This document shows, piece after piece, positions 23,158 through 61,586 of a DNA stretch of 64,000 nucleotides (its first letter is position 1; every line of letters starts with the position of its first letter). Where the stretch lies: the NCBI GenBank assembly GCA_965277405.1, contig OZ255726.1, forward strand, positions 887,128 to 951,127, written 5' to 3'. Below the pieces are notes generated by a model. The model saw only the letters and a list, made by a program, of their open reading frames with translations. It did no database searches and was not told where the DNA came from. Position numbers and translations under genes: made by a program. The stretch comes from Gammaproteobacteria bacterium. GTDB lineage: Bacteria > Pseudomonadota > Gammaproteobacteria > G965277405.

Positions 23158-23161
23158 GCAT

Positions 23162-23207
23162 GGAAACTCTGATTAAGTCGCTCCATGATGGGAAAATCAG
23201 AGTTTGC
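23162..23207. repeat. 46-bp mini-hairpin derived from the MITE termini (GGAAACTCTGATT...AATCAGAGTTTGC)
   Basis: A 13-bp inverted repeat matches the MITE TIR core and brackets a 20-nt TIR-derived loop. It lies between fis-like and gor, immediately upstream of the gor ATG. Confidence 0.6.
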
Positions 23208-23209
23208 GT

Positions 23210-41505: not shown

Positions 41506-42346
41506 CAATATATAGTTTATGTTGGTAGACATGGGCAGTTGCTGCAGCATAACCATGGACTTGACCACAGTCAAAACGCAGGCCACGGTGGCGCACGGCT
41601 ATGACTTTGCCTTGTGCCGCGAGTATCGCTAAAGCATCAGTTATTTGAATCTCTCCATGCTGTGTTGTTTTAATTTGCTTAGCTAACACTGCAAAAACTT
41701 CAGGTATAAGAATGTATCTACCAATGATCGCTAAATTTGATGGCGGGTTGTTGCTCGGTTTTTCAATCATGCTGTCGACGCGCAGTATGTCCTCATCAAT
41801 GGCTGTTGCGGTGACGATGCCATAATTATGCGTAGTTTGTATTGGCACTTCTTCAACGGCAATTACACAACATTGATGCGCAATATACGCAGCAATCATT
41901 TGCTGTAAAATTGAACTTGCAGCAACGCCTGTTGCCGTCAAGCATAAATCGTCAGCTAGAATAACTGCAAAAGGGTTGTCACCGATCAGTGAGGCACCAG
42001 TATATATAGCATGGCCGAGCCCAGCTATTATGCGTTGCCGAGTAAAGGAAAACGTACACGACTCCATCAGTTGCCGAATTGAAATCATGCTATTTTCTTT
42101 GCTGCTACCAGCGATTTGCTGATCTAGCTCAAAGTTACTATCAAAATAATTCATTACAGGTTCTTTATTGCGACCAAGCACAAAATGAATATTATGCACA
42201 CCTGCGTTTACCGCTTCTTCTACGGCAAAATGAATAAGCGGCTTATTGACGATTGGCAACATTTCTTTAGGCAGCGATTTCGTCGCAGGAAGAAACCGCG
42301 TGCCATATCCCGCAGCAGGGTATAAACAATGTTGAATTGCAGCCAT
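41498..42346 (-). CDS. galU: UTP-glucose-1-phosphate uridylyltransferase GalU
   Basis: The motif LYPAAGYGTRFLPATKSLPKEMLPIVNKPLI is GalU-like, and the protein is 282 aa. Confidence 0.9.
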   Translation of the reverse strand: MAAIQHCLYPAAGYGTRFLPATKSLPKEMLPIVNKPLIHFAVEEAVNAGVHNIHFVLGRNKEPVMNYFDSNFELDQQIAGSSKENSMISIRQLMESCTFSFTRQRIIAGLGHAIYTGASLIGDNPFAVILADDLCLTATGVAASSILQQMIAAYIAHQCCVIAVEEVPIQTTHNYGIVTATAIDEDILRVDSMIEKPSNNPPSNLAIIGRYILIPEVFAVLAKQIKTTQHGEIQITDALAILAAQGKVIAVRHRGLRFDCGQVHGYAAATAHVYQHKLYIDG

Positions 42347-43239
42347 TACGCAGTTGGTGTAGTTGATAGCAAAGACCAGTGTATTGGCACGGACACCTCA
42401 ATTGTTGCTGCTTTGCCGATCGGTTTAAAGCCGATGGTCTCTGCGTGTAAATGTAACCTACTGGCTGGAGTATTGCTGTATACAGAATCACCAATGACAG
42501 GATGTTGTGCGCTGGCACAATGACTGCGAATTTGATGGTTGCGACCTGTTATTGGGAATGCATGCAGCACACTGACAATCCCAAGCTCTGGGTCATGAAC
42601 AGTCTTTTGCTTGGTAAAGCGTGTAAGTGATTGCTTCCCCATGGGTTGAGATATACTCAAAGTTTGTCCAGATATAAATTGCTTGGTTAAGGGAATATCG
42701 ATTTCTCGCAAGTCATCAGGCCAGTCTCCGGCAACGACACAATTATATTGCTTGTAGACAGCGCGATGCTTAAGCTGCTGTTGCAATGCCAATAGTGCCG
42801 CACGGTTTTTTGAGATAAGCAGGCAACCTGAGGTGTCTTTATCGATTCTATGCACAAGTTCGTATTCGTTGTTCCATACTGTCCGCACCAGATTTATCAA
42901 GCCAAATTGATGACCAGAGCCACCATGCACAGGAATTCCAGCAGGCTTATTGACAACAATACACGCTTCATCTTCATACACAATTGCATCAATAACCCAA
43001 CTGCTGCGCTCAAAACTTGGTTGCATTGGGATATGCTGTTCAAGCCACGGAGGTAGGCGAATAATGTCTCCTGTAGCAACGCGTTGCATCGGTTTACAGC
43101 GCGACTTATTGCAACGCACTTGACCAGATCTGATTAGTTTGTAGATATTTGAGCGAGCCAGCGACCGCACTTTGCCTAATAAAAAATTATCCAGCCGTTG
43201 ACCATGATGCTGCGTATCAACAATCATGGTGTTACTCAT
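42346..43239 (-). CDS. rluC: 23S rRNA pseudouridine synthase RluC (RluA family with S4 domain)
   Basis: An S4 N-domain is followed by HRIDKDTSGCLLISK and a C-terminal GDSVY motif. The protein is 297 aa. Confidence 0.8.
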   Translation of the reverse strand: MSNTMIVDTQHHGQRLDNFLLGKVRSLARSNIYKLIRSGQVRCNKSRCKPMQRVATGDIIRLPPWLEQHIPMQPSFERSSWVIDAIVYEDEACIVVNKPAGIPVHGGSGHQFGLINLVRTVWNNEYELVHRIDKDTSGCLLISKNRAALLALQQQLKHRAVYKQYNCVVAGDWPDDLREIDIPLTKQFISGQTLSISQPMGKQSLTRFTKQKTVHDPELGIVSVLHAFPITGRNHQIRSHCASAQHPVIGDSVYSNTPASRLHLHAETIGFKPIGKAATIEVSVPIHWSLLSTTPTA

Positions 43240-44308
43240 CAGCTAGTCCGGCCATGAGTCGCGCTTGATGTTCTTGTTGCAAAGCAGTGATGGTTTCGTC
43301 TAAATCACCTTCGACAATAGTATCGAGTTTATACAGCGTTAAACCAATACGATGGTCTGTCATCCGTCCTTGGGGAAAGTTATAAGTACGGATTCGTTGC
43401 GACCGGTCACCACTACCGATTAAATTTCTACGTGTTTCTGCTTGTTGCTGATGCGCTTGCTGACGCTGCTGATCTTCGAGTCTTGCCCCAAGCAATGATA
43501 GCGCACGCGCTTTGTTTTTATGCTGTGAGCGCTCATCTTGACATTCAACGACAACGCCTGTTGGAACATGGGTGATGCGTATCGCAGAATCAGTGGTATT
43601 AACATGTTGCCCGCCAGCACCAGAAGAGCGAAAGGTATCAATGCGCAAGTCACTTTTGTCAATTTGTATTGCTAACTCTTCTGGTTCGACTAGTACAGCC
43701 ACTGTGCACGCCGATGTATGAATACGCCCTTGCGACTCAGTCGCTGGCACCCGTTGGACACGGTGTGCGCCTGATTCAAATTTCAAATGCCGATAAACAT
43801 CTTTTCCTTCAACCCGGGTGATAATTTCACGATAGCCTCCTTGTTCACTTTCGCTAATCGATACAACTTGCGTCGTCCAACGGTGTTGCTCAGCAAAACG
43901 CAGATACATCCGCTGCAGGTCAGCACAAAAAAGTGCAGCTTCGCTGCCACCAGTCCCTGCGCGGATTTCGACGAATACATTGGCGCCATCATCTTTATCT
44001 TTTGGTAACAATAGTGTTTTGATAGTCATTAATGTGTCGTCAATTCCATGTTGCAGGTCTTGCAGTTCCGTTACCGCAAGATTATGCATTTCTGCATCCG
44101 CTAATAATACAGATGTTGATTGGTGCTGCGCTTCAAAGCCTATATATGTCAACCATGCATTGTGGATTGGCTCTAAGTCGGCAATTTCTTGCATCAACGC
44201 CTTGTATACATCAATATCGTTAGTAATGTCTGGCTGTGCCAGCTGATTCGCAACAATGGTATGACGCTCTTCAAGAGCTTGGAGCCGATTGCGCAGTTGA
44301 TTATTCAT
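43232..44308 (-). CDS. prfA: Peptide chain release factor 1
   Basis: A GGQ motif (SGAGGQHVNTTDSAIRITHVPTG) and PxT-type RF1 features are present. It lies downstream of hemA. Confidence 0.92.
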   Translation of the reverse strand: MNNQLRNRLQALEERHTIVANQLAQPDITNDIDVYKALMQEIADLEPIHNAWLTYIGFEAQHQSTSVLLADAEMHNLAVTELQDLQHGIDDTLMTIKTLLLPKDKDDGANVFVEIRAGTGGSEAALFCADLQRMYLRFAEQHRWTTQVVSISESEQGGYREIITRVEGKDVYRHLKFESGAHRVQRVPATESQGRIHTSACTVAVLVEPEELAIQIDKSDLRIDTFRSSGAGGQHVNTTDSAIRITHVPTGVVVECQDERSQHKNKARALSLLGARLEDQQRQQAHQQQAETRRNLIGSGDRSQRIRTYNFPQGRMTDHRIGLTLYKLDTIVEGDLDETITALQQEHQARLMAGLADE

Positions 44309-45615
44309 GGTGTTGGTGTTTGCTGTTTGCTGTTTACGCTGGTAGCGGGTGGATGGATTGCAAAGAGGGTATGCGCTGCTTGCAAGAGTTGGGTATCGCC
44401 TTTCTTTCCGGCTTCACGCATTGCTACGGTTGGATGGTGGGCAATTTTTTGGATGAGCGCAGACGCCATCCGCTCGATGACGTATTTTGGATCATCTCCT
44501 CTGTTGAGCATAGTATATGCTTTGCGTATTTCTACATCTCGAACTGATTGTATATGTGCGCGAAATGGCCGCAACAATGCGTTATGATTGGTTTGATTGA
44601 TGCGCTGTTGCAGCTCATACATGGCTGTATTGATGATCAAGTGTGCGTGTTGAGCTGCTTGTTTGCGTAACTTACTGTTGCCTTCGATAATGGCTCCTAA
44701 GTCGTCAACACAATATAAAAATACATGGTCTATTGCAGCCACTTCATATTCAATATCACGCGGTACCGCTAAGTCAAAATACAGTTGAGTTGCATATTTT
44801 CGTTGTTTGCCTGCCTGCTCTACTTGCCCTTTTCCTACCAGCGGTAATGTGCTAGATGTTGCGCTGACTATAATATCTGCTTGGTGAAGTAGTTCAGGAA
44901 TTTCATACAGCGGGTAGGTGCTTCCCCCAGTTTTTTGCGCCAACCGCGTGCCACGAACACTACTGCGGTTGCATATCCAAGGAGGTGGACAGCCCAAATC
45001 TGACAGATATTGGGCGACCAAAACGATGGTATCGCCAGCACCAATAAGTAACACGCGTTTATTGTCAAATCTAGAGAATATATTTTTTGCCAATGAAACC
45101 GCTATATGGGCGACCGACATTGGTGATTGGCCAATTGCGGTGTTGTGACGAATGCGTTTAACAATATGGAATACAAACGGGATGACTGTAGCAAAAAAAT
45201 CCCCACAGTAATCAAGCTGCTTGGCGTGGTCGTACGCTGCTTTCATTTGCCCAAATATTTGCGGCTCACCGAGCGCCATCGATTCAAGACCGCAGGCAAC
45301 TATAATTAAGTGCCTAATTGCCTCGTCGCCAGTATAGCAATAATGGTCAGCAATTTTTTCGGCGACAACAAAGCGCAGCCACGTGTCAAGGATGCGTTGC
45401 AAGCAAACCTCAGTTGCCAACGTCTTGGCAACGATATACCACTCTATTCTATTGCAGGTTGATAGCACAAAACACTCATCAACGCCATGCTGTTGTAGTT
45501 CGGCGTATATCAACTCTATCGCAGCGGCATTTGGCAATAATCGCTCGCGCTGAGCAATATCTGTTTTGCGGTGATCTATGCCAACGATAAGGCATTGCAT
45601 ACTGTTGAGTTTCAT
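44305..45615 (-). CDS. hemA: Glutamyl-tRNA reductase HemA
   Basis: The N-terminus MKLNSMQCLIVGIDHRKTDI...LSTCNRIEWY has the catalytic Cys (CNR) and an NADPH domain. The protein is 436 aa. Confidence 0.9.
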   Translation of the reverse strand: MKLNSMQCLIVGIDHRKTDIAQRERLLPNAAAIELIYAELQQHGVDECFVLSTCNRIEWYIVAKTLATEVCLQRILDTWLRFVVAEKIADHYCYTGDEAIRHLIIVACGLESMALGEPQIFGQMKAAYDHAKQLDYCGDFFATVIPFVFHIVKRIRHNTAIGQSPMSVAHIAVSLAKNIFSRFDNKRVLLIGAGDTIVLVAQYLSDLGCPPPWICNRSSVRGTRLAQKTGGSTYPLYEIPELLHQADIIVSATSSTLPLVGKGQVEQAGKQRKYATQLYFDLAVPRDIEYEVAAIDHVFLYCVDDLGAIIEGNSKLRKQAAQHAHLIINTAMYELQQRINQTNHNALLRPFRAHIQSVRDVEIRKAYTMLNRGDDPKYVIERMASALIQKIAHHPTVAMREAGKKGDTQLLQAAHTLFAIHPPATSVNSKQQTPTP

Positions 45616-45626
45616 ACGTATGCTAA

Positions 45627-45910
45627 GGAACCTCTGATTAAGTCCATGATGGGCGAGACGGAGAAAAAACGCTGATGATAACTAGACGCAGTGCGCAGAT
45701 AATACTGGTGGTATTATTAAGTGCTGCAACGACGTTAGCGCAGCGTTTTTTCCCGTCCTTCTGTTGAATATACAACAGTTTGATGGTAGCGGTACTTGCT
45801 GTGTTGCATCCTTTGGCGTATATGCTACGGCATACGCCTGCGGAATGCGCCTTGCAATCATCAGCAATTACCATCAAACTCGCTCCATCAGCGACTTAAT
45901 CAGAGGTCCC
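45627..45910 (+). mobile_element. MITE copy 4 (284 bp) with a perfect TSD CTAA. It is inserted between the plsC stop and the hemA start.
   Basis: CTAA occurs at 45623-45626 and 45911-45914. The right TSD contains the plsC stop (TAG on the minus strand). The hemA ATG is 11 bp from the left end. Confidence 0.88.
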
Positions 45911-46630
45911 CTAATGAATGGAGCTACAAGTAGCTTCGATCCAGGTTCTTAGTTGTTGTGTTGCTAACTTACTATCTGGCATTGGTTGTATATGCGGACC
46001 AAAAATCACGCGGATAGTTCCAGGGTATTTAGTTATTTGATGCGCGGGCCAACGCGACCCAGCATTGTGTGCAAATGGAATAATTGGGCATTTGTTTTCA
46101 TGCGCCAGTTTTGTCGCGGTGCGGGTAAATGGTCCAAGTTCAGGTGCATAACGTCTGGTTCCTTCAGGGAAAATGAGTAAATTATGACCTTGAGATAAGT
46201 GGACACTTCCTTGCGCAATAACTTGGCGAAGTGCCTGTGTCTTATTTTTTCTAATCAGTGTTACTGGTTTGAGCAATGCTAATGCCCAACCAAATATTGG
46301 AATCCAAATCAGCTCATACTTTAATACACTGACCATTGGCATTGCAAATGATTGAATAACCAGTGTTTCCCATGGGCTTTGGTGGTTACCGGCAAACACA
46401 CAGGCACGATGCGCTTGCAATGCGGTGCGGATATGTTCTAAGCCATCGATTTGCATGGAAATATTGCAGCTGAGTTTTAGCCAAAATAACACAAACCGCG
46501 TGAGTACAGCAGGCACTATAAAGCGTTTTTTGAACGGCAGCATCCAACCAAATAGCAGCGATGCCACGCACACTATAGTGACCGCTACCACGTAGCCGAT
46601 ATAAAAAATTATTGAACGGAAAATCAACAT
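45911..46630 (-). CDS. plsC: 1-acyl-sn-glycerol-3-phosphate acyltransferase (PlsC family)
   Basis: The HX4D-type motif (NHQSPWE) and FPEGTR motif are present, along with an N-terminal TM segment. Confidence 0.8.
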   Translation of the reverse strand: MLIFRSIIFYIGYVVAVTIVCVASLLFGWMLPFKKRFIVPAVLTRFVLFWLKLSCNISMQIDGLEHIRTALQAHRACVFAGNHQSPWETLVIQSFAMPMVSVLKYELIWIPIFGWALALLKPVTLIRKNKTQALRQVIAQGSVHLSQGHNLLIFPEGTRRYAPELGPFTRTATKLAHENKCPIIPFAHNAGSRWPAHQITKYPGTIRVIFGPHIQPMPDSKLATQQLRTWIEATCSSIH

Positions 46631-46634
46631 TTAG

Positions 46635-46838
46635 AGAATCTCTGATGTAATTGCTAGTGAAACACTGTATGTGTCGCCAATTAGTTGCGGTAACATCGCC
46701 GCTACAACAGCAGGGCAAGATTTACTGTGAACGGCTGGTGTGCATGGGCTTGCCAAGGCAGCACCATTTACAGCAAACCGCCGTGCTTTTCAACCTGTAA
46801 AGTTGCCTCACACCCATCATGGGCTTAATCAGCGCTTC
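46635..46838 (-). mobile_element. Diverged older MITE copy (about 204 bp), between the yaaA stop and the plsC start
   Basis: The left end is AGAATCTCTGATGTAATTGC and the right end is CACCCATCATGGGCTTAATCAGCGCTTC, which matches the L-type TIR in reverse complement. The left flank TTAG lies directly after the plsC ATG. Confidence 0.6.
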
Positions 46839-46841
46839 TCT

Positions 46842-47618
46842 CTATACAGTAACAGGATGCCTGCGTAAAAACACCCAAGTATTGGCGGTGCTACGCTCAC
46901 ATGAAAAGCTATAGCTATCCATTGCGAATAACTGTAATTCTTCAATACTTGTAATATTATTTTCAGCCACAAAACGCACAAACCTGCCGCGTGCATGCTT
47001 TGCATACACGCCGATAGTTTTTACCACAGCGTTTTTTTCTTCTACAAATGAAATATTGATAACGTGGCGTTGTTGGCTTATTGCCTGCAAGTCGAGCGCT
47101 TTGGCGTATTCAATCGATGCTAAGTTGATAATTGCAGCGGTTGCTGCTGTTTGCTCAAGCAGCGTCTCGGTGAGTTGTTTCTTCCAGAAAGCGTATAAAT
47201 TACCACCTGCTGGATTTGGCATTTTAGCACCCATTTCTAGACGATACGGCATAATTCCATCGCTGGGACGCAGCAGCCCGTACAGCCCTGAAAGAATGCG
47301 CACATGGCTGTTGATGTACTCACGTCCAGCGGCATCGATTGTAGCAATATCAAGACCGCGGTATACATCTCCTTGGAACATCCAAATCGACTGGAAGCCA
47401 GCGCCAGCATCAACCGACCAGTTATTATGGTAGGACAGCGTGCGTTGCGCTACGGCAGGCGAAATCCCCAGCAACTGTTGTAAGTCATGCTGCGAATATT
47501 GACGCAATATTCCATGGAGCTGTTGTGCTTGTTGGCTAAATTCAGGAACCGTGGCTGCAGGAAGACCTGCGTGGAATTCCGTTCGCAGTTTTTTCGCTGG
47601 AGAAATCAGGAATTTCAT
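46842..47618 (-). CDS. yaaA: Peroxide stress protein YaaA (UPF0246/DUF328)
   Basis: The N-terminus MKFLISPAKKL is YaaA-like, and the protein is 258 aa. Confidence 0.85.
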   Translation of the reverse strand: MKFLISPAKKLRTEFHAGLPAATVPEFSQQAQQLHGILRQYSQHDLQQLLGISPAVAQRTLSYHNNWSVDAGAGFQSIWMFQGDVYRGLDIATIDAAGREYINSHVRILSGLYGLLRPSDGIMPYRLEMGAKMPNPAGGNLYAFWKKQLTETLLEQTAATAAIINLASIEYAKALDLQAISQQRHVINISFVEEKNAVVKTIGVYAKHARGRFVRFVAENNITSIEELQLFAMDSYSFSCERSTANTWVFLRRHPVTV

Positions 47619-48020
47619 TTGCTATACCATCGAGCAGTCTTCAAAATGAACAAACAAGCATTGCGCTTCGCTACGAATGCGTCGGGGGGCTATGTTGCCA
47701 CATTTGCTTAGGCTGTCATCGCTTTGACGCCAATTGTGTTGGATATTTACCAAGATATATTTGCTCGATAGATGTATTTGCTCGATAGCTGCCGCTAAAA
47801 TTCGAAAAACACCTGATATTTGTCCGTTATTCAGTACTCCAATGAGCTAATGCTGGCTGTAAAACTCCTTGCCAAGTTATTTTTTTAACAAAAAAAATAA
47901 TTTTTAGCAAATTTGTGCATTTTTGGTATCATGAACACGCTCAATATTGGTTTGCAACATTGCTGCGTCAAGAACATCAAATGTGGTCAGTTTTTCGAGA
48001 TTTGTTAGGGTATATTTAAA

Positions 48021-48887
48021 ATGAATGGAAAGTTTTTATATTACCAAGGTGTTTACGCAGAGGCAGAAAAATACCCATTTTTGCTGGCTCATGCGCTGCA
48101 TTATGCAACGTCCGTTTTCGAAGGGATACGAGTTTACAATGGCGCACCATTTTTGCTCGAAGAGCATCTCTCACGGCTGATAACCTCTTGCGAACTCATC
48201 GGCATTGATTGTCCGGCAACGGTCCAAGAACTATCCAAGATCTGCTACAACCTTATCGACAAGACTGGGGTGCAAAATGCCTACCTAAGACCGGTGGTAT
48301 TCAAAGGCGGTCCCGATCTTGGCGTGTATGCACCCAAAAACACGATTGAGTTAAGTGTCATCATCTGGGAATGGCCATCAGTCTTCGGCGCAGCTGCGGT
48401 TTCTAAGGGAATATCGCTAACTTCAGATATCCCTTATAGACGACCGCCACCAACGTGTTTTCCAACTCAAGCAAAGAGTTCAGCAGCGTATCTCATAGGC
48501 GCAATTAACCGGCAAAAAGCGGAAAACGACGGCTTCAATGACGCCCTACTTTTCACCCACGCAGGGATGGTTGCGGAAGCAACTGGCGCCAATATTTTTT
48601 TAGTCAATGGCAACACTGTTACTACACCACCTGCAAATGATTTCCTCAATGGCCTTACCCGCCAGACGGTGATTGGATTGCTGGCAAGCGGTCAAGTTGA
48701 GGAAAGAGAAATCACGTTGGATGATGTTAAATCGGCAGATGAGGTCTTTCTCACTGGCACTGCCTACGAAGTAATTGGCGTCTCAAAAATTGACGATTGT
48801 GAAAAATCCGTTGGTCAATTTACCAGCAACATTCGCAATGCCTACCTCAAACTTACCAAAACAACCAACCTTAAAGGCGCGGCCTGA
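48021..48887 (+). CDS. Class IV PLP-dependent aminotransferase (branched-chain / D-amino-acid aminotransferase family)
   Basis: The EGIRVY motif and 288-aa length fit the fold-type IV family (IlvE/Dat/PabC). Confidence 0.75.
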   Translation: MNGKFLYYQGVYAEAEKYPFLLAHALHYATSVFEGIRVYNGAPFLLEEHLSRLITSCELIGIDCPATVQELSKICYNLIDKTGVQNAYLRPVVFKGGPDLGVYAPKNTIELSVIIWEWPSVFGAAAVSKGISLTSDIPYRRPPPTCFPTQAKSSAAYLIGAINRQKAENDGFNDALLFTHAGMVAEATGANIFLVNGNTVTTPPANDFLNGLTRQTVIGLLASGQVEEREITLDDVKSADEVFLTGTAYEVIGVSKIDDCEKSVGQFTSNIRNAYLKLTKTTNLKGAA

Positions 48888-49085
48888 ACACGACAGAATG
48901 TATGATGGCTGCTAACACCAAAATTCGCAAAATTTACACGCTTGGCCCTGGAGGCACAAACTGCGCAGCAGCGGCTGCTGAACTCTGTCGATCTGGTGGA
49001 GTAGCAGCCTGTATACCAACATTACCTGCAGCCAAAGCCAAATGAAAAAGCACTTTCTGCACGACGCAAACCTGCGGGGCTGCTG

Positions 49086-50042
49086 ATGATAGGTATTAGT
49101 CACCCTTTTTCAAAACACATGCGGCTGTTGGCGCTGACGATCAGTATTCTTGCCTGCTTCACAGCAAGCTGGGTGTTGGCTAAAAACATCATCGAAAGTG
49201 CCCCTGCGTATGCTTCGGCTACCGGCCGGGTGTTGGCGACTAGTCTGTTCCTTTGGGCTTTTCTCCTACTCCGTCCTGGCGAACGCGTAAAGTCGATGGT
49301 AGTGTTGCGCCGCTGGCCAGCTATCATCGTATTAGCTTTGCTGGGTTTTGTCCTGTATTCGCTACTGACATTTCTCGCCTTGACGGTGCTAAATCCATCG
49401 GATCTGGGAATGACGCTGGCGCTTATACCTGGGTTTACCTACGTGCTTGGGTTGGCTTTTTTTAGCGACCAAATTCACCATCTCAAATTGCTCGGTGTTT
49501 CTTTGGCCAGCGGGGCGGCGCTATACTACACCACCAACGGCTTCCTAAGTTTGACAACAGCAGATGCTTTTGGAATCACAATGGCAGCGGGGGCGGCACT
49601 TAGCTATGCCCTGTATGGTTTAACGTATAAAAAGCTCATGGCAGACTTGCCCACAACAAGCGTGTTACCGTTTATCACTGCCGTTGCTTTCCTCATGTTG
49701 CTACCCTGGTTGCTGTTTGTCAGCCCAGCAGAAAGGTCAATTGACCTTTGGACAGCTGCTAAATTGCTGATGCTCGGTGCTGGGCTGTCTGCGCCAGTAT
49801 TCTTAATGTATCATGCCGTGCTTGATTTAGGCGGGGTGCTGTATGCAAATTCAATCGGAATTCTTGCGCCTTTTGCGATCTTACTCACCGAATGGGGCTG
49901 CGGCTATCGCAGTAGCGTCAGCCTAGGAGAACTAAGCGCGATGGCGATCTGTGCAGTCGGCGTCGCTTTAATTTTTAAAGACGCCGCCAGACCAAATCGC
50001 GTATCTGCGAACATCGCCGTATCTAACCGCCCCACTGATTAG
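49086..50042 (+). CDS. DMT-superfamily (EamA-like) transporter
   Basis: Ten predicted TM helices in two EamA-like halves. Confidence 0.7.
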   Translation: MIGISHPFSKHMRLLALTISILACFTASWVLAKNIIESAPAYASATGRVLATSLFLWAFLLLRPGERVKSMVVLRRWPAIIVLALLGFVLYSLLTFLALTVLNPSDLGMTLALIPGFTYVLGLAFFSDQIHHLKLLGVSLASGAALYYTTNGFLSLTTADAFGITMAAGAALSYALYGLTYKKLMADLPTTSVLPFITAVAFLMLLPWLLFVSPAERSIDLWTAAKLLMLGAGLSAPVFLMYHAVLDLGGVLYANSIGILAPFAILLTEWGCGYRSSVSLGELSAMAICAVGVALIFKDAARPNRVSANIAVSNRPTD

Positions 50043-50064
50043 GATAATTTAGGAGGAATACTAT

Positions 50065-50347
50065 GGAAGCTATGATTAAGTCCATGACGGGCGAGACGGA
50101 GAAAAAACGCTGATGATAACTAGACGCAGTGCGCAGATAATACTGGTGGTATTATCAAGTGCTGCAACGACGTTAGCGCAGCGTTTTTTTCCGTCCTTCT
50201 GTTGAATATATGATGGTTTGCTGCAGCGGTACTTGCTGTGTTGCATCCCTTGGCGTATATGCTACGGCATGCGCCTGCGGAATGCGCCTTGCAATCATCA
50301 GCAATTGCAGGCAAACTCGCTCCATCAGCGACTTAATCAGAGCTTCC
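50065..50347 (+). mobile_element. MITE copy 5 (283 bp) with a perfect TSD CTAT. It is inserted between the SD and start codon of the ATP-grasp gene.
   Basis: CTAT occurs at 50061-50064 and 50348-50351. The AGGAGG SD at 50051-50056 is now separated from the ATG (50350) by the element. Confidence 0.9.
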
Positions 50348-50349
50348 CT

Positions 50350-51615
50350 ATGGGCCTTACATTAGGGTTGGTCTGTCAGCGCAATAACAACGTGCCGTTC
50401 CTATTTGAAGCAGCGGCAGCCAATCGATGTGGTTTAGTACTTATTCACGCACCCGGTGAATCTCCCCCGACGCATATGCCAGCTGTTGTCCACACGTTGG
50501 AGCTCGACGTATTTGCTCATCCACAAGCCGCGCTCTCACAGCTTGAGGCTGAAAAAATCGGACTAGATGGCATATTAACCTGCCGTGAAGAGGCTGTGCC
50601 CTGGACTGCCTTAGCAGCCCAACGCCTCAAACTACCTGGACTCAACCCCGATGCGGCACTCATCACCCGCGATAAAGCACAGATGAGAAAAGCTTTTGCA
50701 GTGGCGGGGTTAAATGTTCCAAGCTATACCTCCCTGTCAGCAGACGCCCCAGTAACACTATCCGCTAGCATGTCATACCCGCTAGTCGTCAAACCCACAG
50801 GTGGCTACGCAAGCCAAGGTGTCATTCGCGTTGATAAAGCGAGTGATCTGAAAAATACAGTAGCTAAAGTGCGAGCAATCAATGCCAATGACCTCGACGC
50901 TTTCGCCACCACTACCAGCGGAATCAATTGGGGCGCTGTTATCGTTGAAGAGTATATCGACGGCCCCGAATATGCAGTAGAGGTGTTTGCAACCGAAGGG
51001 CGGGTACATGTACTCTCCATTGGTTACAAAGGCGAGCCCAAGGGTCCTTACTTTGAGGAGACAGTTTACCTCGCGCCACCACACCTCGCGCCAGCTACAC
51101 ATAAGGCAATTGTGGAGCAAGCAATTGGCGGCATGGAATCTTTAGGCCTTACTGACGGCCCAGGCCACTGCGAGTTAAGACTGCAAAATAGCACGAAACC
51201 CTATCTGCTTGAGATTGGAGCAAGGATCGGCGGGTCTGGGGTAAGCCAATTTATAGTACAGGAAAGTTCAGGAATTGATTATGCTGGCCTACAGTTCCGC
51301 CAGTCCGCCAAGTCCTCCCTTCCCGAACTTCCTGACATAGCGACGCCAATCGCGACTGCAGGAAACTGGATTATCCCACTCGGTGGTCATGGAAAATTGG
51401 TTGATATTGCAGGTCTACAAGTGGTTCATGAGCATCCAGAAACCAAGCGCGTGCTAACCTTCCTCGAACCTGGCACCGCTGTGCAACCCTATCCAATTTT
51501 CAGTGGGTATCCAGGTTTCGTGTTATCACGCCACACCGACTGGCAGTCTGGTATAGACTATCATCGCTGGCTCAGCCAAAAACTCCGTACACATTGGGTG
51601 GAGGTAGAAACTTAA
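50350..51615 (+). CDS. ATP-grasp domain protein (carboxylate-amine / L-amino-acid ligase-like)
   Basis: ATP-grasp motifs (PLVVKPTGGYASQGV...EEYIDGPEYAVE...ELRL...LLEIGARIGG). The start at 50350 is reconstructed from the pre-insertion site. The track ORF start at 50218 lies inside the MITE. Confidence 0.75.
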   Translation: MGLTLGLVCQRNNNVPFLFEAAAANRCGLVLIHAPGESPPTHMPAVVHTLELDVFAHPQAALSQLEAEKIGLDGILTCREEAVPWTALAAQRLKLPGLNPDAALITRDKAQMRKAFAVAGLNVPSYTSLSADAPVTLSASMSYPLVVKPTGGYASQGVIRVDKASDLKNTVAKVRAINANDLDAFATTTSGINWGAVIVEEYIDGPEYAVEVFATEGRVHVLSIGYKGEPKGPYFEETVYLAPPHLAPATHKAIVEQAIGGMESLGLTDGPGHCELRLQNSTKPYLLEIGARIGGSGVSQFIVQESSGIDYAGLQFRQSAKSSLPELPDIATPIATAGNWIIPLGGHGKLVDIAGLQVVHEHPETKRVLTFLEPGTAVQPYPIFSGYPGFVLSRHTDWQSGIDYHRWLSQKLRTHWVEVET

Positions 51616-51671
51616 ATCGCCTGTTAATCCTATGTTATCGCTATGCAGTTAGCAGATTATGCCGCTCTTAT

Positions 51672-51701
51672 TACATACTAATACATACTAATACATACTA
51701 T
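51672..51701. repeat. 10-bp x3 tandem repeat (ATACATACTA) in the convergent intergenic region between ATP-grasp and gatC
   Basis: Read directly from the sequence. Confidence 0.85.
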
Positions 51702-51982
51702 AAAATTTTCGGAACTGTATAAAAATGGTCAGTAACATAGGGATTATCCCTTTGCAGCTCTGCTCTGCTATGGTGTTTGGCAACAATATCTGCGCGCAAT
51801 GGCTGTGCTTGTTCCAATGGGGTGTGGAGGGGTTCTAACCCTGTCACGTCGATTGTTTTCATTGTTTCAATCATTTGTAAAACATTTTCAAGATCAGCGC
51901 TGAATGCGGCAGCTTGCTCATCACTCAGTTGAAGTTTTGCCAGTGTGCAGAGTTTTTGTATGTCGATATGTAACGGCGTCAT
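51698..51982 (-). CDS. gatC: Glu-tRNA(Gln)/Asp-tRNA(Asn) amidotransferase subunit C
   Basis: A 94-aa GatC-family protein. No gatA or gatB is adjacent. A MITE TIR-like 13-mer (GAACCTCTGATTT) lies 8 nt upstream of the start. Confidence 0.8.
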   Translation of the reverse strand: MTPLHIDIQKLCTLAKLQLSDEQAAAFSADLENVLQMIETMKTIDVTGLEPLHTPLEQAQPLRADIVAKHHSRAELQRDNPYVTDHFYTVPKIL

Positions 51983-51984
51983 AT

Positions 51985-52730
51985 TTAATGAACCTCTGAT
52001 TTAAAATGTTTACATGAATATCGCTGTGCTTGGACAGCTGTCATTGCGCTGGTCGCTATAATATCGTCAATACTGCAACCACGCGAGAGCTCATTCACTG
52101 GTTTGTTTGACCCTTGTAAAAAGGTCCAATCGCAGTCCCTCCGCCCATTCGCCCATTCGCCCATTAGTTGCGCAATTGTATCGCCACTATTCGCAACCTC
52201 TAGCGCTGGAAATATTAAAACATTGGCGCTGCATTGGCTGATTATTAACCAACCACAACCAATCACCATCAACAACCGCGTGCTATTGTGCCACGCTGGT
52301 ATGAATATGCAGTATATTTTTGCTTGTAAACTGTCGCAGCCATGAGTTTTGTGATCCCCAGCAATGGCACATATGCATGCGTCGCCGGGTAATTGCATGC
52401 TGCATGCAACAGATATTGTTCTTGTGTATCAATATAATCTTCTATAAACGGCGGATACCACAGCGGTAGTGGGTCGTAGCACGTAGTAAGCTGTTCAAGG
52501 TATGCGCTGCACCAATGCTGCCGTACATTTGTTTGCTTCCTTTTTACAGCACTTTGATAAACGCTTCTTGTATTGTCATTTGTATCATATACCGCTCCTG
52601 CTAAATAATTTCTCAGTAACGACCTATGGTCAATCAAGATAATGCGAGATTGAATAGCAACCGCGCAGCAACTGTACTGAATTTTGCACCATGCAGACAC
52701 ATCCAACAATAATTGCTGCGTAACTATCAC
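51985..52730 (-). pseudogene. Cys-rich hypothetical reading frame split over two overlapping ORFs (52269-52730 and 51985-52398). It is possibly a frameshifted remnant.
   Basis: The two ORFs lie in different frames and overlap by 130 nt. I recognise no family, and a (CGCCCATT)x3 repeat lies at 52142-52165. Confidence 0.25.
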
Positions 52731-52882
52731 GCTTGTCCAAACTCCCCCCAGCTACGAAAGCACCACCGCCCCATTAAAAAATCTATGCTGCATACCAACT
52801 ATCAACGCCTAAACTATAAATTCTAAATAGTTATGTCTCGCTTCACAATTGGTGCGGGCAAATACAATCCCAAAGCATCTAG

Positions 52883-53026
52883 GGAACCTCTGATTAAGTC
52901 CATAATGGGCGAAACGGAGCAAAAACGACGTGAGCACAGCGTTTTTCCTGTTCCTCTGTTGCATATACTGTTCAATATACAACGGTTTGGAGCAATTGCT
53001 GCATCAGCGCCTTAATTAGGACTTCC
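52883..53026 (+). mobile_element. Internally deleted MITE derivative (144 bp) retaining both termini
   Basis: The left end is GGAACCTCTGATTAAGTCCATAATGGGCGAAACGGAGCAAAAACG and the right end is ...GCGCCTTAATTAGGACTTCC. The flanks are CTAG / TTAA. Confidence 0.7.
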
Positions 53027-53149
53027 TTAAGTCAAAAAATCTAAAAATGATTCATATGGGGTATACGGCATACGTTTATCATATTATCATATTATCATTA
53101 GTCATATTACAACACTTGCTATTTACAAGCTTTGCCTAAGGAGAAATAC

Positions 53150-54949
53150 ATGACTGCTTCTATGCCTAATCGTCTATTCAACACCCCGATAGATACGCAA
53201 GACGATATAACAGCACTTATTCCTGATTTCCCGTTTGATTACGCAGTTTTCTTGGACACCGCTAAGATCAATCGCAAACCGTTGTTCAATATTCCTTCAG
53301 CCAATTATGGACAAGAAGTCTGTATTGTTGGAGGTGGCATGGCCGGCTTGACGGCAGCATACGAACTTATGAGAAGCGGACTCAAACCGATCATTTTTGA
53401 AGCTGATCGGATTGGCGGGCGTATGGACGCTAAGCCGATGAGTAACTCCGGCACATTGGCTGAAATGGGTTCGATGAGGTTTCCGCTAAGTGGGAAAGCA
53501 TTGTTCCACTATATCAATAAGGTTGGAGCCTATACTGCGCCATTTCCAAACCCAGGTACAGCTGCATCTTTTGGGAATCTGGTCAATTACCGCGGCGAAA
53601 ACTTCTATTACGAACGTGATAGTAAAAATTTCCCGATACCATCACACTTCGTTGCGCTTGAGCAAGATTGGCAGGACATGCTGGACGGTTCACCGACCAA
53701 TTTTCAGCAGATGCGCCAGGCGCTAATTCGCAAGGATATAACTACGATCAAGAGAATATGGAATAATCTTATCACGGGGACGGAGAGCATAGACAGTTTT
53801 GATAACATCAGTTTTTACAACTATCTAAAGATGTACGGCAACTGGTCAATGGATGAAATTGACCTGTTTGGTCAAGTGGGCTTTGGCACAGGTGGATGGA
53901 ATACAGATTTTCCAAACTGTATACTTGAGGTCCTTAGGGTCGCGATGACCTACCTTGATTCCGACCACCAGTTGATTTATGAAGGCTCCACTTTTGTACC
54001 TAGCTCACTTCTACAGCAGACCCCTAGTGTATTGGGTGACGTCATGGTGCATTGGTCTGAAAATACAACTGTTCAGTCTCTAACAGAATCGGTCTTGAAT
54101 AGTGTATCTGGCAACAAAGTTAATGCTTTTCAACCTTCTAACAGCGACACTAACAAAATCAAAGTTGAATACTCAGGTCCGAATGGCGAAAAGAAATCCC
54201 GAGATTTCAGTGCTGTAATTTACACTCCTCAAGTGCGCTGCCTACAGCAAATGGGTCATAATTACGCTGAACAAAATTCCTATAGCATTCTTACCCAGGA
54301 TATTATCGAAGCAGTTCAATACACTCACTACATGCAATCAGCAAAAACATTCATTGAGCTTAAAACACCATTCTGGAAGGAACGCGATTCAACTACCGGA
54401 AAGTATAAGATGAGTATCACTCTTACAGACCGTAAGACACGTGGGACCTATCTTCTTGACTATACCCGCGATGATGAAACACCGCGTCCTGTTGTATGCA
54501 TCTCATACACTTGGAACGATGATGCGCTGAAATATCTTCCGCTTAAATCCGCCGACCGTCTATATGGAGGAATTACGACCCTGTACGACATTGATCCAAA
54601 TTTAATGGGGCATCTGGGGCATGAGGTGACCGGCGACCCCATTACTATCTCCTGGGAAAACGAACTGTTCTACCTTGGTGCCTTCAAAAATAACCTTCCT
54701 GGCCAATACAGAATGCAAAGACGCCTGTTCACTCAGTTCATGCAAAATACAAGCTCGGTCAAAGATCGTTTTATCTTGGCAGGTGACGACATTTCTTGGA
54801 CGGCTGGATGGGCAGAAGGAGCAGTATCAACTGCCATAAATGCAGCAAATGCCGTCGCGGGCTTGTTCGAAGGCTCAACTTATCAAAATAACTCTGATCC
54901 TGTAAGCCGTTTTAATGACTTAAAGCCGGTCGAACTGAATGCTGTTTGA
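53150..54949 (+). CDS. Flavin-dependent amino-acid 2-monooxygenase (oxidative decarboxylase) of the Trp/Lys/Arg 2-monooxygenase - amine oxidase family
   Basis: The FAD dinucleotide motif VCIVGGGMAGLTAAYEL..GGR is present. By my recollection it resembles lysine 2-monooxygenase DavB-type sequences, for example the conserved block FGQVGFGTGGWNTDFPN. The SD AAGGAG is 6 nt upstream of the ATG at 53150. Confidence 0.75.
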   Translation: MTASMPNRLFNTPIDTQDDITALIPDFPFDYAVFLDTAKINRKPLFNIPSANYGQEVCIVGGGMAGLTAAYELMRSGLKPIIFEADRIGGRMDAKPMSNSGTLAEMGSMRFPLSGKALFHYINKVGAYTAPFPNPGTAASFGNLVNYRGENFYYERDSKNFPIPSHFVALEQDWQDMLDGSPTNFQQMRQALIRKDITTIKRIWNNLITGTESIDSFDNISFYNYLKMYGNWSMDEIDLFGQVGFGTGGWNTDFPNCILEVLRVAMTYLDSDHQLIYEGSTFVPSSLLQQTPSVLGDVMVHWSENTTVQSLTESVLNSVSGNKVNAFQPSNSDTNKIKVEYSGPNGEKKSRDFSAVIYTPQVRCLQQMGHNYAEQNSYSILTQDIIEAVQYTHYMQSAKTFIELKTPFWKERDSTTGKYKMSITLTDRKTRGTYLLDYTRDDETPRPVVCISYTWNDDALKYLPLKSADRLYGGITTLYDIDPNLMGHLGHEVTGDPITISWENELFYLGAFKNNLPGQYRMQRRLFTQFMQNTSSVKDRFILAGDDISWTAGWAEGAVSTAINAANAVAGLFEGSTYQNNSDPVSRFNDLKPVELNAV

Positions 54950-55002
54950 CAGGAAATTTGGCAGCGGTGTCTAAACTAGCGCTGAACAGCGTTGTAGCCT
55001 AG

Positions 55003-55294
55003 GGGATCTCTGATGAACTAGCTGACGGAATGAGTTTGCCTGCAATTGCTGATGATTACAAGGCGTAGAGCGCATGACCTAGCTATACGCCAAGGGATGC
55101 AATACAGCAAGCGTAAGCAATTGCCGCAAACCAAAAGTGTATTCAACACAACGACGGAGAAAAAACGCTGTGCTACCGTCGTTGCAGCACTTGGCAATAC
55201 CCACAGGACCCACCAATATTATCTGCGCACTGCGCTTAAGTTTCATCAAGCGTTTTTCTCCGTCTCGTCCAGCATGGACTGAATCAGAGCTTCC
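55003..55294 (-). mobile_element. MITE copy 6 (292 bp), in reverse orientation, between the monooxygenase and ureohydrolase genes
   Basis: Both TIRs are present (GGGATCTCTGATGAA... / ...GACTGAATCAGAGCTTCC). The flanks are CTAG / TTTA with no TSD. Confidence 0.82.
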
Positions 55295-55562
55295 TTTATG
55301 GGACAGCCGCTGAGTTCACTTGTCAACCAGACCGCGTGGAGTGTAGTAACTAATACGTTGAAATCTTCAAGCCTAGTGCCCGATAGTCGAAAAATAATGC
55401 AGGTTGCGCGCTTAGAACCTTACAGAAGCTTAATAATATGACACTCCAACTATTCAGACCTAACATCGTATAAAAACAGCCTATTTGTGCAGCACGTCTG
55501 TTTAATCTAGGTAATTTCTAAGCTATAATTCGTTTTCGCAGTATATTTTGGGGGAATGGAAT

Positions 55563-56516
55563 ATGGTGCCAAAAGAATATTTTCAACCGTTAAGTGGCAA
55601 CGAAATGCCCCGTTTTGCTGGGCTGTCTACTATGATGCGTCTGCCTGCTAAGCACACTGCACTTGACCTTGATGCCTGTTTTATCGGTATCCCGTTAGAT
55701 ATTGGCACATCGAACCGATCAGGAACACGCTTTGGACCGCGACAAATACGTGCTGAGTCTAGCATGCTGCGCCCCTATAATATGGCGACTGGTGCGGCAC
55801 CCTTTGATGCCATGCGGGTTGCCGATATCGGTGATGTGCCAATTAATACATTTAATTTAAAAGACAGTATACAGCTAATTTCAAAGTATTATTGCGATCT
55901 GCTAAAACATGATGTTATTCCTCTAACGATGGGCGGGGATCATACGATTAGCTTCCCTATTTTGCAGGCAATCGCGGCCAAACATGGACCAGTAGCTTTA
56001 ATCCACATTGACGCTCACGCCGACATTAATGACGAGATGTTTGGTGAAAAAATTGCCCATGGCACACCCTTTAGACGGGCCTTTGATGATGGTTTACTGA
56101 ACAACGACAAGGTTTTCCAGATAGGATTGCGCGGCACAGGATATTCACCAGAAGACTTTAACTGGTCCCGTCAACAAGGGTGGACGGTTGTTCAAGCCGA
56201 AGAGTGCTGGGGCAAATCTCTTGCACCATTAATAAAGAATATCAGCAAAAAAATCGGCAACACCCCAACGTATATCACCTACGATATTGACAGCCTTGAC
56301 CCGGCATTTGCACCTGGCACTGGTACGGTAGAGATAGGTGGGTTGACCACATGGCAGGCTTTGGAACTCGTGCGGGGATGTGCTGGTCTTAATATCGTAG
56401 GAGGTGATCTGGTTGAGGTGTCACCACCGTATGACCCCAGCGGCAATACCGCTTTAATTGCAGCAAATCTGCTGTATGAAATGCTCTGCGTGCTACCAAA
56501 AAACTATCAAGACTGA
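55563..56516 (+). CDS. Arginase-family ureohydrolase (agmatinase / guanidinobutyrase / guanidinopropionase-like)
   Basis: The binuclear Mn motifs GGDHTIS, DAHADIND and SLDPAFAPGTG are present. The protein is 317 aa. The ATG at 55563 is preceded by a GGGGGA SD. Confidence 0.85.
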   Translation: MVPKEYFQPLSGNEMPRFAGLSTMMRLPAKHTALDLDACFIGIPLDIGTSNRSGTRFGPRQIRAESSMLRPYNMATGAAPFDAMRVADIGDVPINTFNLKDSIQLISKYYCDLLKHDVIPLTMGGDHTISFPILQAIAAKHGPVALIHIDAHADINDEMFGEKIAHGTPFRRAFDDGLLNNDKVFQIGLRGTGYSPEDFNWSRQQGWTVVQAEECWGKSLAPLIKNISKKIGNTPTYITYDIDSLDPAFAPGTGTVEIGGLTTWQALELVRGCAGLNIVGGDLVEVSPPYDPSGNTALIAANLLYEMLCVLPKNYQD

Positions 56517-56542
56517 CTAAATCTAAACAGGGAGAAAATAAT

Positions 56543-57646
56543 ATGTCGAAACGCAAACAAACAATCAAATTGAGCCGCCGCGCCTTTGTCGGCACTGCGA
56601 TTACAGCAGGAGTTGTGGCGGCCTCAATAGGCGCGCCTTCAATCTTACGGGGAGCAGCAGATCGAACCCTCAAAGTGGGGGTATACGGCGGTTACTTTCA
56701 GGAATCTTTCGACAAGCATATTTTTCCTGATTTTACAACTGCAACGGGTATCAAGCTTGAATCAATTGGAGAGCCGACAGGTGAAGCATGGTTGGTACAG
56801 CTGATGGCGGCTGCGCGGGCAAACCAAGCGCCTGCTGATGTCTCGATGATGGCACAAGTTGCACGTTTGAAAGGTGAGAAAGCAAAACTTTGGGGAGCGT
56901 TGGATGATAGCGCATTAACGAATGCTGCTAACTTACCTGATCACTTCGTGCACCGGTATGAAGATGGCAAAATCAATAGCTTAGGCGCTGTGGCTTGGTA
57001 TGTCACATTGGTTACAAACACTGATGTTTACAAAGATGCGCCAACATCATGGAAATCTTTATGGGATTCGGCAAATGCTGATAGTCTTGGCCTTATGGCA
57101 CTCGTAACCAACTCTTTTCTTTTAGAAATCACAGCTAAGACATGGTTCGGTGGCACCGGAATCTTGGACACAAAAGATGGCATTTTGCAGACCATGCACA
57201 AGCTGGAAGAAGTAAAACCAAACGTGCGACTGTGGTATCGCGACGAAGGTCAATTCCAGCAAGCCTTGGAAACTGGCGAGATCCCTATGGGCGAGTATTA
57301 TCACGATGTTACTGGACTGGCTGCGTCTGCAGGAAAGCCTGTAAGATCAACGTTCCCAGTAGAAGGTGGGGTGCTTGACTCAGGGTCTTGGTGTGTTTCC
57401 AAAGCATCCAAAAAAGTGACAGAAGCACAAGAATTCATCAACTATATGTGCCAACCTGAAATTCAAGCTAAACTGTCGCGTTTCGTCGGTACGGCACCAA
57501 CTGTACGGCGTGATCTGACGGATTTGACCGATGAAGAATATGCCGCAGTTGCAAGCCCCATTGATCCAATCATCCCACGTTATGATTTATATAGCGAACG
57601 TGAAGATTGGCTGACTCAAAAATGGTCTGAATTGGTAACTGGATAA
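56543..57646 (+). CDS. Periplasmic polyamine-type substrate-binding protein (PotF/PotD-like) with a Tat signal
   Basis: The twin-arginine motif SRRAFVGTAI is followed by an SBP family 1 fold. It is the first gene of a PotFGHI-ordered operon. Confidence 0.8.
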   Translation: MSKRKQTIKLSRRAFVGTAITAGVVAASIGAPSILRGAADRTLKVGVYGGYFQESFDKHIFPDFTTATGIKLESIGEPTGEAWLVQLMAAARANQAPADVSMMAQVARLKGEKAKLWGALDDSALTNAANLPDHFVHRYEDGKINSLGAVAWYVTLVTNTDVYKDAPTSWKSLWDSANADSLGLMALVTNSFLLEITAKTWFGGTGILDTKDGILQTMHKLEEVKPNVRLWYRDEGQFQQALETGEIPMGEYYHDVTGLAASAGKPVRSTFPVEGGVLDSGSWCVSKASKKVTEAQEFINYMCQPEIQAKLSRFVGTAPTVRRDLTDLTDEEYAAVASPIDPIIPRYDLYSEREDWLTQKWSELVTG

Positions 57647-57672
57647 ACCAATACTGGCTCGCCAAAAAATTT

Positions 57673-58764: not shown

Positions 58765-58772
58765 GCACGCGC

Positions 58773-59606: not shown

Positions 59607-59609
59607 CTC

Positions 59610-61510: not shown

Positions 61511-61563
61511 GTGATATAATGTAAACTAAGTGTGTTGGATGTACTGGATGCATAGATGCATCC
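61511..61563 (+). promoter_or_regulatory. Candidate sigma70 promoter with an extended -10 (TGaTATAAT at 61512-61520), followed by a palindromic operator-like site GGATGCAT-AG-ATGCATCC (61546-61563) and an extra GGATG half-site
   Basis: TATAAT lies 67 nt upstream of the ATG at 61587. An 8-bp perfect inverted repeat lies between the -10 and the SD AAGGAG (61575-61580). Confidence 0.45.
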
Positions 61564-61586
61564 AAACGAACAACAAGGAGAAAAAT

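Follow-up and report, generated by a model that had tools for sequence, protein, structure and literature searches.

Genes and a gene relic at the locus

A 64-kb window of a 2.17-Mb gammaproteobacterial genome (contig OZ255726.1, positions 887,128 to 951,127) was analyzed around 48021-51615 (all coordinates are those of the window), where an earlier note had proposed a self-contained biosynthetic module of an aminotransferase, an exporter and an ATP-grasp ligase. The three open reading frames (ORFs) were confirmed where they had been placed, all on the + strand: a class IV, branched-chain aminotransferase (BCAT)-like protein, here called AT4 (48021-48887, 288 aa); an EamA/DMT transporter, presumed to be an exporter (49086-50042, 318 aa); and the ligase (50350-51615), whose intact ORF encodes 421 aa and not the 422 aa previously given. 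Two further features were found between them. These were a 47-codon relic of a prephenate dehydratase (PDT)-like gene of the BacA/TdaC kind (48902-49045, +), and a 285-bp miniature inverted-repeat transposable element (MITE; 50064-50348, +) separating the transporter gene from the ligase gene. The GC content was 0.49-0.52 in the locus and 0.41-0.46 in the flanks. PrfA of the host was no more than 61% identical to that of named gammaproteobacteria (Saccharospirillum, Halomonas, Endozoicomonas). An Rfam scan returned two tRNAs as the only matches; in region 47600-51800, no intrinsic terminators were predicted, and promoter-like matches were no higher than background.

The 198-bp stretch between AT4 and the EamA gene, intergenic in appearance, holds the 47-codon ORF MMAANTKIRKIYTLGPGGTNCAAAAAELCRSGGVAACIPTLPAAKAK*, in which the N-terminal motif KIYTLGPGGTNCAAAA is joined in frame to the C-terminal motif ACIPTLPAAKAK*. 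The first half resembles the HTLGPxGTNCxAA motif of PDT-like N-termini and the second half the C-terminal ...ACITTLPAAK... of the same proteins, as seen upon alignment with 13 PDT-like proteins, including that of locus L084 with 'KIFTFGPTGTNCEAAA' and 'ACITTLPAAKKQ'. Hidden Markov models (HMMs) of the PDT-like and DUF6421 families were built without the read-through ORFs of high-GC loci, and this clean PDT-like model matched the relic (E=5.4e-7) in two separate model segments, 3-23 and 125-148. From position 49040 on, the DNA aligned with the region between the DUF6421 and EamA genes of L084. The two-part motif fusion, the split HMM match and this alignment point to two deletions, one in frame inside the PDT-like gene and the other running from near the end of that gene across the whole of DUF6421. 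The in-frame deletion lies between two similar [ST]N[CS]EAA-type motifs. Missing from the window are thus about 125 internal and the last 25 or so PDT-like codons together with the entire downstream DUF6421 gene; no full-length PDT-like gene was detectable in the window, and no DUF6421 remnants were found by tblastn or HMM in the window, L081 or L092.

AT4 matched Pfam Aminotran_4 (PF01063) with E=2.5e-49. Among NCBIfam models, BCAT scored far better (4e-84) than D-amino-acid transaminase (4e-32); of the two types named in the earlier note, the BCAT-like one was retained and a D-amino-acid enzyme was rejected. AT4 fell under all NCBIfam BCAT equivalog cutoffs (best 282 bits versus 396 for NF005726; 222 versus 245 for TIGR01122) and was not assigned to housekeeping IlvE. 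With the D-amino-acid transaminase models it reached 98-111 bits, the cutoffs being 277-320, and was not assigned to that family either. In the phylogenetic tree, AT4 grouped with P0126-P0139 (bootstrap 200/200), apart from generic BCATs, and its nearest relatives were 46-54% identical. The genomic context was checked for four members of this clade (a Stappia genome, a Pseudoruegeria metagenome-assembled genome [MAG] and two metagenome contigs), and all four were in operons with the order AT4 - PDT-like - DUF6421 - (SnoaL) - LysE, the PDT-like identity being confirmed at E~1e-72. Judged by model scores and tree position, AT4 is a cluster-specific lineage and not a generic ilvE product. Since the gene order in these operons is that of the window, the ancestral arrangement would have been AT4 - PDT-like - DUF6421 - EamA - ligase.

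The transporter consists of two Pfam EamA repeats and is 78-80% identical to the EamA proteins encoded directly 5′ of the ligase in L081 and L084, and 70% identical to the copy in L001. An EamA/DMT gene adjoins the ligase gene in most relatives; a DMT exporter gene directly upstream of the ligase gene, as in the window, was observed in 13 other loci. With the MITE excised, the native gap between the EamA gene and the ligase ATG is 20 nt.

The ligase showed the three-domain architecture of ATPgrasp_N (E=1e-11), ATP-grasp_4 (5.8e-28) and LAL_C2 (5.8e-6), the last scoring 26.9 bits, slightly under the Pfam gathering score of 29.4. It aligned end to end with BL00235 of Bacillus licheniformis, PDB 3VOT (E=1.2e-95; residues 5-413 versus 8-412), and far more weakly with BacD (8e-13), Ddl (1.7e-5) and biotin carboxylase (1e-5 to 5e-5). 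Matches to the NCBIfam models of PurK (~1e-7), RimK (1e-4) and Ddl/Van (1e-5 to 1e-15) were all far under cutoff, and for BacD the score was 39.8 bits, the cutoff being 850. A family alignment of 20 sequences has 37 invariant columns, all of them kept in the window protein, and identity to the B. paralicheniformis orthologue (P0048) was approximately 41%. By homology, the protein belongs with the BL00235-type L-amino-acid ligases and not with Ddl, RimK or PurK. The earlier suggestion of either an L-amino-acid ligase or a D-Ala-D-X ligase was thus correct in its first part; the ligase family is L-specific, and the protein was not placed among primary-metabolism enzymes. BL00235 has the same three-domain architecture as the window ligase, which differs in having lost its cluster partners and in carrying a MITE at its start.

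The intact cluster in other genomes

Ligase homologues of 38-81% identity were found in Bacillus, Priestia, Pantoea, Bartonella, Streptomyces, Photobacterium and many alphaproteobacterial MAGs. In a contig scan for ligase relatives, the matches listed were mostly distant ATP-grasp relatives (30-35%), with L001-L010 being useful. Analysis of the fetched loci by tblastn and gene calls showed that the ligase gene is nearly always preceded by an EamA gene and is also accompanied by genes for PDT-like (~180 aa) and DUF6421 (~410 aa) proteins. The set PDT-like - DUF6421 - EamA - ligase, in some cases joined by an aminotransferase gene, was present in Azospirillaceae, Streptomyces/Kitasatospora, Plantibacter, Pantoea, B. 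paralicheniformis, Bartonella and Fodinicurvata. The aminotransferase is of class IV in Streptomyces, Kitasatospora, Plantibacter and an Azospirillaceae MAG, and of class I/II in B. paralicheniformis (L086), where the order is EamA - ligase - PDT-like - DUF6421 - aminotransferase. On a 25.6-kb mobilizable plasmid of Staphylococcus xylosus, p14BME10-2, the order is DMT - ligase - PDT-like - DUF6421, with three GNAT acetyltransferase genes downstream. Shared orientation alone is uninformative, and it is this co-conservation that makes the association in the window non-random. The three families first noted are indeed conserved together elsewhere, the unit being one of five genes and not of three. 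No description of this cluster was found in the literature searched, in agreement with the previous statement that the module is not a recognised operon.

Loss of parts of the cluster was also observed in other loci. L084 (TARA contig, 324-4468) has an internal stop in the PDT-like gene and DUF6421 split into two ORFs, and DUF6421 is likewise split into two ORFs in Bartonella sp. (L087, 4418-8266). Together with L081-L083, where only the EamA and ligase genes are present, L084 indicates repeated loss of the amino-acid-forming half while the EamA and ligase ORFs are kept. By gene content, decay of the amino-acid-forming genes beside an intact EamA-ligase pair is a recurrent event in host-associated or reduced lineages.

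The PDT-like proteins have a PDT fold without an ACT domain and are ~43% identical to TdaC of Phaeobacter, which is annotated as prephenate dehydratase; this kinship ties the family to the pathway of tropodithietic acid, another antibiotic derived from prephenate/phenylacetate. In Phaeobacter inhibens pP92_b (L093, 5932-6534), TdaC was found within the gene order GST - "prephenate dehydratase" - thioesterase - acyl-CoA dehydrogenase. The PDT-like proteins gave no NCBIfam match of the BacA type, only weak prephenate dehydratase matches. They aligned full-length, with E=1.5e-23, with what we take to be the BacA sequence, a result used as a lead and not as a test.

Several known systems resemble the intact cluster. 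The bacilysin (bac) operon of Bacillus subtilis follows the same logic: the prephenate decarboxylase BacA is its ACT-less PDT-fold enzyme, BacF its aminotransferase, BacD its L-amino-acid ligase and BacE its exporter. The intact cluster differs in having no BacB, BacC or BacG homologues, in having DUF6421 instead, and in using an exporter of the DMT and not the MFS type. The window ligase and BacD are only distant relatives (E~1e-12), neither the window nor the related clusters showed cupin, SDR or reductase genes, and the window holds only a BacA-like relic and analogues of the aminotransferase and ligase, so that the locus is not a bacilysin operon. PolE, an Fe/pterin-dependent amino-acid desaturase of the polyoxin pathway that acts on free L-Ile, is a member of the DUF6421 family, and the HDxxH...E motif of PolE/DUF6421 was proposed as the Fe/pterin binder (PMC12614342). 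This motif is shared by PolE and the DUF6421 proteins of the intact cluster, being kept as HDxxH-x(21-23)-E in 13 of the 13 cluster homologues; the window differs in lacking a DUF6421 gene. An IlvE-type aminotransferase and a prephenate decarboxylase make the antimetabolite 2,5-dihydrophenylalanine (bioRxiv 10.1101/2025.04.26.650784). The AT4 - PDT-like core, to which Stappia-type operons add a LysE exporter gene downstream, has a parallel in the corresponding 2,5-dihydro-L-phenylalanine cluster (plu3041-3043; Photorhabdus, Erwinia, Pseudomonas syringae, Streptomyces). That cluster differs in having a PaaK-like gene and in lacking genes for DUF6421, a ligase and a DMT exporter. The Hil operon of Pantoea ananatis encodes the dioxygenases HilA/B, HilC, the ATP-grasp ligase HilD and an RhtA/MFS exporter, and a dipeptide antibiotic has been proposed as its product (PMC3684760). 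It is like the intact cluster in combining amino-acid-modifying enzymes with a PF13535 ligase and an exporter, and differs in its 2-oxoglutarate dioxygenase tailoring and in the absence of PDT-like and DUF6421 genes.

Taken together, the locus is likely the decaying remnant of a horizontally acquired AT4 - PDT-like - DUF6421 - EamA - L-amino-acid ligase cluster. A horizontal origin is suggested by the raised GC content of the locus and by its nearest ligase and EamA relatives (77-81% identity), which come from 55% GC metagenomic contigs without synteny to the window. In the intact cluster, the PDT-like, DUF6421 and AT4 proteins would convert a precursor, probably prephenate or a branched-chain compound, into a non-proteinogenic amino acid; the BL00235-type ligase would join this amino acid to a second L-amino acid in an ATP-dependent reaction, and the DMT protein would export the dipeptide, following the "masked antimetabolite" logic of bacilysin. 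In some operons, the free amino acid would be exported by LysE; in others it would be ligated and then leave through the DMT protein. Formation of an unusual amino acid, its incorporation into a dipeptide and export is the best reading of the intact cluster, judging from the protein families. This part of the earlier proposal can be kept for the intact cluster, without the D-amino acids. As to the order of decay, the two deletions, which cut the PDT-like gene to 47 codons and removed DUF6421, would have come before the insertion of a TA-targeting MITE at the ligase start. With both of these genes hit by deletion, the original product is probably no longer made from the window locus.

The idea from which the analysis started, that a complete three-gene operon uses a D-amino-acid/BCAA-type transaminase and the ligase to make a (D-)amino-acid dipeptide or amide for DMT export, agrees with the intact, co-oriented ORFs and the co-conserved families. 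It is nevertheless very improbable, given the PDT-like relic between AT4 and EamA and the presence of PDT-like and DUF6421 genes in every fetched locus having such an aminotransferase (class IV; class I/II in L086) with the ligase. The model scores of AT4 also favor an L-specific BCAT by far over a D-amino-acid transaminase, and the ligase shows 45%-level similarity to an L-amino-acid ligase and only remote similarity to Ddl. Chance adjacency of ilvE, a generic DMT permease gene and a housekeeping ATP-grasp gene would fit the BCAT resemblance and strong constraint of AT4, and can be given practically no weight: AT4 lies under all BCAT equivalog cutoffs and within the 200/200 clade linked with PDT-like/DUF6421 operons, ligase and EamA genes are paired repeatedly in different phyla, and the GC content of the locus is atypical. 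As far as gene neighborhoods can tell, co-conservation already refutes it.

The MITE at the ligase start codon

The MITE was delimited by seven-copy alignment, blastn and pattern search. It has terminal inverted repeats (TIRs) of ~20 nt (AGGAAGCTCTGATTAAGTC), is flanked by a TA duplication at 50062-63 and 50349-50, and spans 285 bp without a transposase gene. Seven full copies (14366, 22497, 25590, 45620, 50064, 55000 and 61606) and several fragments were found in the window; copy 50064 is the fifth in order, and the full copies are 76-95% identical to it. The TIRs, the TA duplication, the small size and the multiple copies identify the element as a MITE; Rfam gave no match for it. Correia elements of Neisseria are short non-autonomous MITEs with TIRs that duplicate TA, often lie at the 5′ ends of genes and form stable RNA hairpins. 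The window element is similar to them in being short, non-autonomous and multicopy, in its TIRs and TA duplication, in its location at gene 5′ ends and in its predicted RNA hairpin; it differs in its length of 285 bp, and its sequence is unrelated as far as compared.

Insertion took place at the TA of cTAtg, and the ligase start codon (50350) now begins with the duplicated A. The native Shine-Dalgarno (SD) sequence of the ligase gene, AGGAGG (50051-50056, +), was thereby displaced 288 bp upstream and now lies 294 nt from the ligase ATG. When the MITE was excised in silico, the resulting sequence AGGAGGaatacTATGGGC was colinear with the MITE-free sequence of L081 (GGATAATTTGGAGTAAATACCATGAG) and with L084; likewise, the excised SD-ATG region AGGAGGaatacTATGGGCCTT was colinear with its L081 homologue GGAGTAAATACCATGAG. 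The left junction of the MITE carries a 16-codon upstream ORF (uORF; 50063-50113, +; MEAMIKSMTGETEKKR*), whose ATG (50063) arose when the first base of the MITE changed from A to T, as seen in the alignment of copies. This ATG was considered as the original ligase start and rejected, as it lies in the MITE junction and L081/L084 place the native start at 50350. By position, the native AGGAGG now serves the uORF. The RNA of the MITE was predicted to fold into a hairpin of -128 kcal/mol (z=-6.75), with the ligase ATG within the hairpin base. The claim that MITE copy 5 uncouples the ligase gene from its SD sequence is therefore borne out, copy 50064-50348 being located between the AGGAGG and the ATG.

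The terminal repeat of the MITE, AATCAGAG[G/C]TTCCyTA, was observed to end 0-8 nt upstream of the starts of five genes: hemA (45624-45639, -), plsC (46632-46647, -), an lpd-like Pyr_redox_2 gene (23195-23210, +), gatC (51986-52001, -) and the ligase gene (50335-50350, +). Five of ~22 repeat ends abut a start, compared with 0.1 expected (P~9e-8), and in the lpd-like gene and the ligase gene the ATG takes its A from the final position of the repeat. A GAGG or GAGC is situated ~7-10 nt from the repeat end, the ligase-side end having GAGC, and a canonical SD sequence precedes only 7 of 40 long ORFs in the window. The repeat may serve as a ribosome-binding site that moves with the element, or TA dinucleotides at gene starts may be the preferred insertion targets. 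A portable initiation region, with the repeat ...CAGAG[G/C]TTCCyTA, would explain why MITE ends abut five starts; that the MITE end acts in this way and that EamA and the ligase, having lost their amino-acid-forming partners, persist as an independent unit for dipeptide export is regarded as rather unlikely. Since MITE ends abut these starts and the ligase has been under purifying selection since the insertion (see below), silencing of the ligase is not demonstrated; of the "regulatory disruption" in the earlier note, the displacement of the SD sequence can be maintained, and disruption itself cannot.

Other MITE-derived sequences were found near gene starts. The most diverged copy (61606-61875) is situated just past an SD sequence and ATG, in the 5′ end of a 546-aa SBP_bac_1 ORF (61530-63170, +), and is read in frame (~90 codons) ahead of an apparent signal peptide. 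A shortened derivative of ~211 bp (46632-46842) spans the entire yaaA-plsC gap, and a back-to-back pair of terminal repeats (~52 bp, 23159-23210) lies upstream of the lpd-like gene.

Downstream of the ligase gene, a 137-aa ORF (51985-52398, -) matched only the last ~60 residues of PTA_PTB (E=6e-13) and is probably a pseudogene fragment of a phosphate acetyl/butyryl transferase gene; MITE fragments (52879-52967) adjoin it. Further on, genes for a 605-aa flavin amine oxidase, an agmatinase and a solute-binding/ABC transporter set (53132-61213, +) are in one orientation, interrupted by a MITE at 55000-55294. They may form a polyamine or guanidino-compound utilisation locus.

Selection, decay and meaning of the locus

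A sister strain, L092, was 99.0% identical over 12.7 kb (window 40214-52901) and had the same MITE insertion and the same relic. Its EamA gene carries W57*, and a +1 insertion after ligase codon 3 puts the native ATG out of frame. In L092 10001-11404 (corresponding to window 50210-51615), two +1 insertions, one in the MITE and one in the ligase gene, together give rise to an ORF of 467 aa, which begins at an ATG inside the MITE and uses an outward-facing MITE frame also open in copy 45620. This ORF either is a pseudogene open by chance or has a re-invented N-terminus. The synonymous rate (dS) between window and sister was uneven: 0.003 for hemA, 0.012 for plsC, 0.030 for AT4, 0.041 for yaaA, 0.055 for EamA and 0.059 for the ligase. 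Such unevenness over 12.7 kb suggests recombination or mosaic ancestry.

In the window itself, the AT4, EamA and ligase ORFs are intact and were under purifying selection until recently. The ratio of nonsynonymous to synonymous rates (dN/dS) between window and sister was 0.05 for AT4 and 0.13 for prfA, and all 15 amino-acid differences between the two ligases fall in variable columns. With a dN/dS below neutral between strains having the MITE in common, the ligase was still constrained after the insertion. Neutral evolution of the EamA and ligase genes between the strains was rejected by the dN/dS test; recombination may add to the raised dS.

Several points weigh against the locus being a decaying remnant. 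For the ligase and EamA genes, dN/dS between window and sister was 0.28 and 0.21, with neutrality rejected at P=2e-4 and 5e-4, and 0.17-0.25 versus the deeper relatives L081 and L084. Every conserved ligase residue is still intact. In L081-L083, the EamA-ligase pair is intact with no trace of the other genes, and a stand-alone role is possible. The analysis covered 64 kb of the genome, and intact PDT-like or DUF6421 paralogues may be present elsewhere in it. The chemistry of the intact cluster, moreover, is deduced from family membership only.

The same points, apart from the last two, would favor a unit that has been co-opted, in which EamA and the ligase (and AT4 separately, as a BCAT) are still expressed and useful, for example in exporting a dipeptide made from ordinary amino acids, with the MITE end supplying a workable translation start. 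In vitro, BL00235 reportedly joins ordinary amino acids into Met-X and Leu-X dipeptides, in work ascribed to Kino et al., and the MITE ends at the hemA, plsC, gatC and lpd-like starts and the scarcity of canonical SD sequences also agree with such a unit. However, W57* and the ligase frameshift of the sister strain show that the pair is dispensable in a near-identical genome. The dN/dS of 0.2-0.28 is above that of the neighbors prfA and AT4, the ligase ATG is in the base of the predicted hairpin, and the ligase-side MITE end has GAGC and not GAGG. On balance, co-option has perhaps one chance in a handful of being correct, and the remnant of a five-gene cluster is the preferred reading.

The reading in the earlier note was thus partly supported: its genes and their association hold, and the three-gene module as a self-contained unit does not, the PDT-like gene being reduced to a relic and DUF6421 being deleted. 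What appeared to be an orphan biosynthetic module would represent an acquired secondary-metabolite cluster that is decaying step by step, in the small (2.17 Mb) and MITE-rich genome of a divergent gammaproteobacterium. The placement of MITEs at start codons is a second lead. For the family, the five-gene cluster spans Firmicutes, Actinobacteria, Proteobacteria and a mobilizable plasmid, and provides a genomic context for BL00235, a ligase treated as a biocatalyst in the papers that cite it. It would link a BacA/TdaC-like enzyme, a DUF6421 Fe/pterin oxidase and a BCAT-like aminotransferase in one candidate pathway to a new amino acid and its dipeptide.

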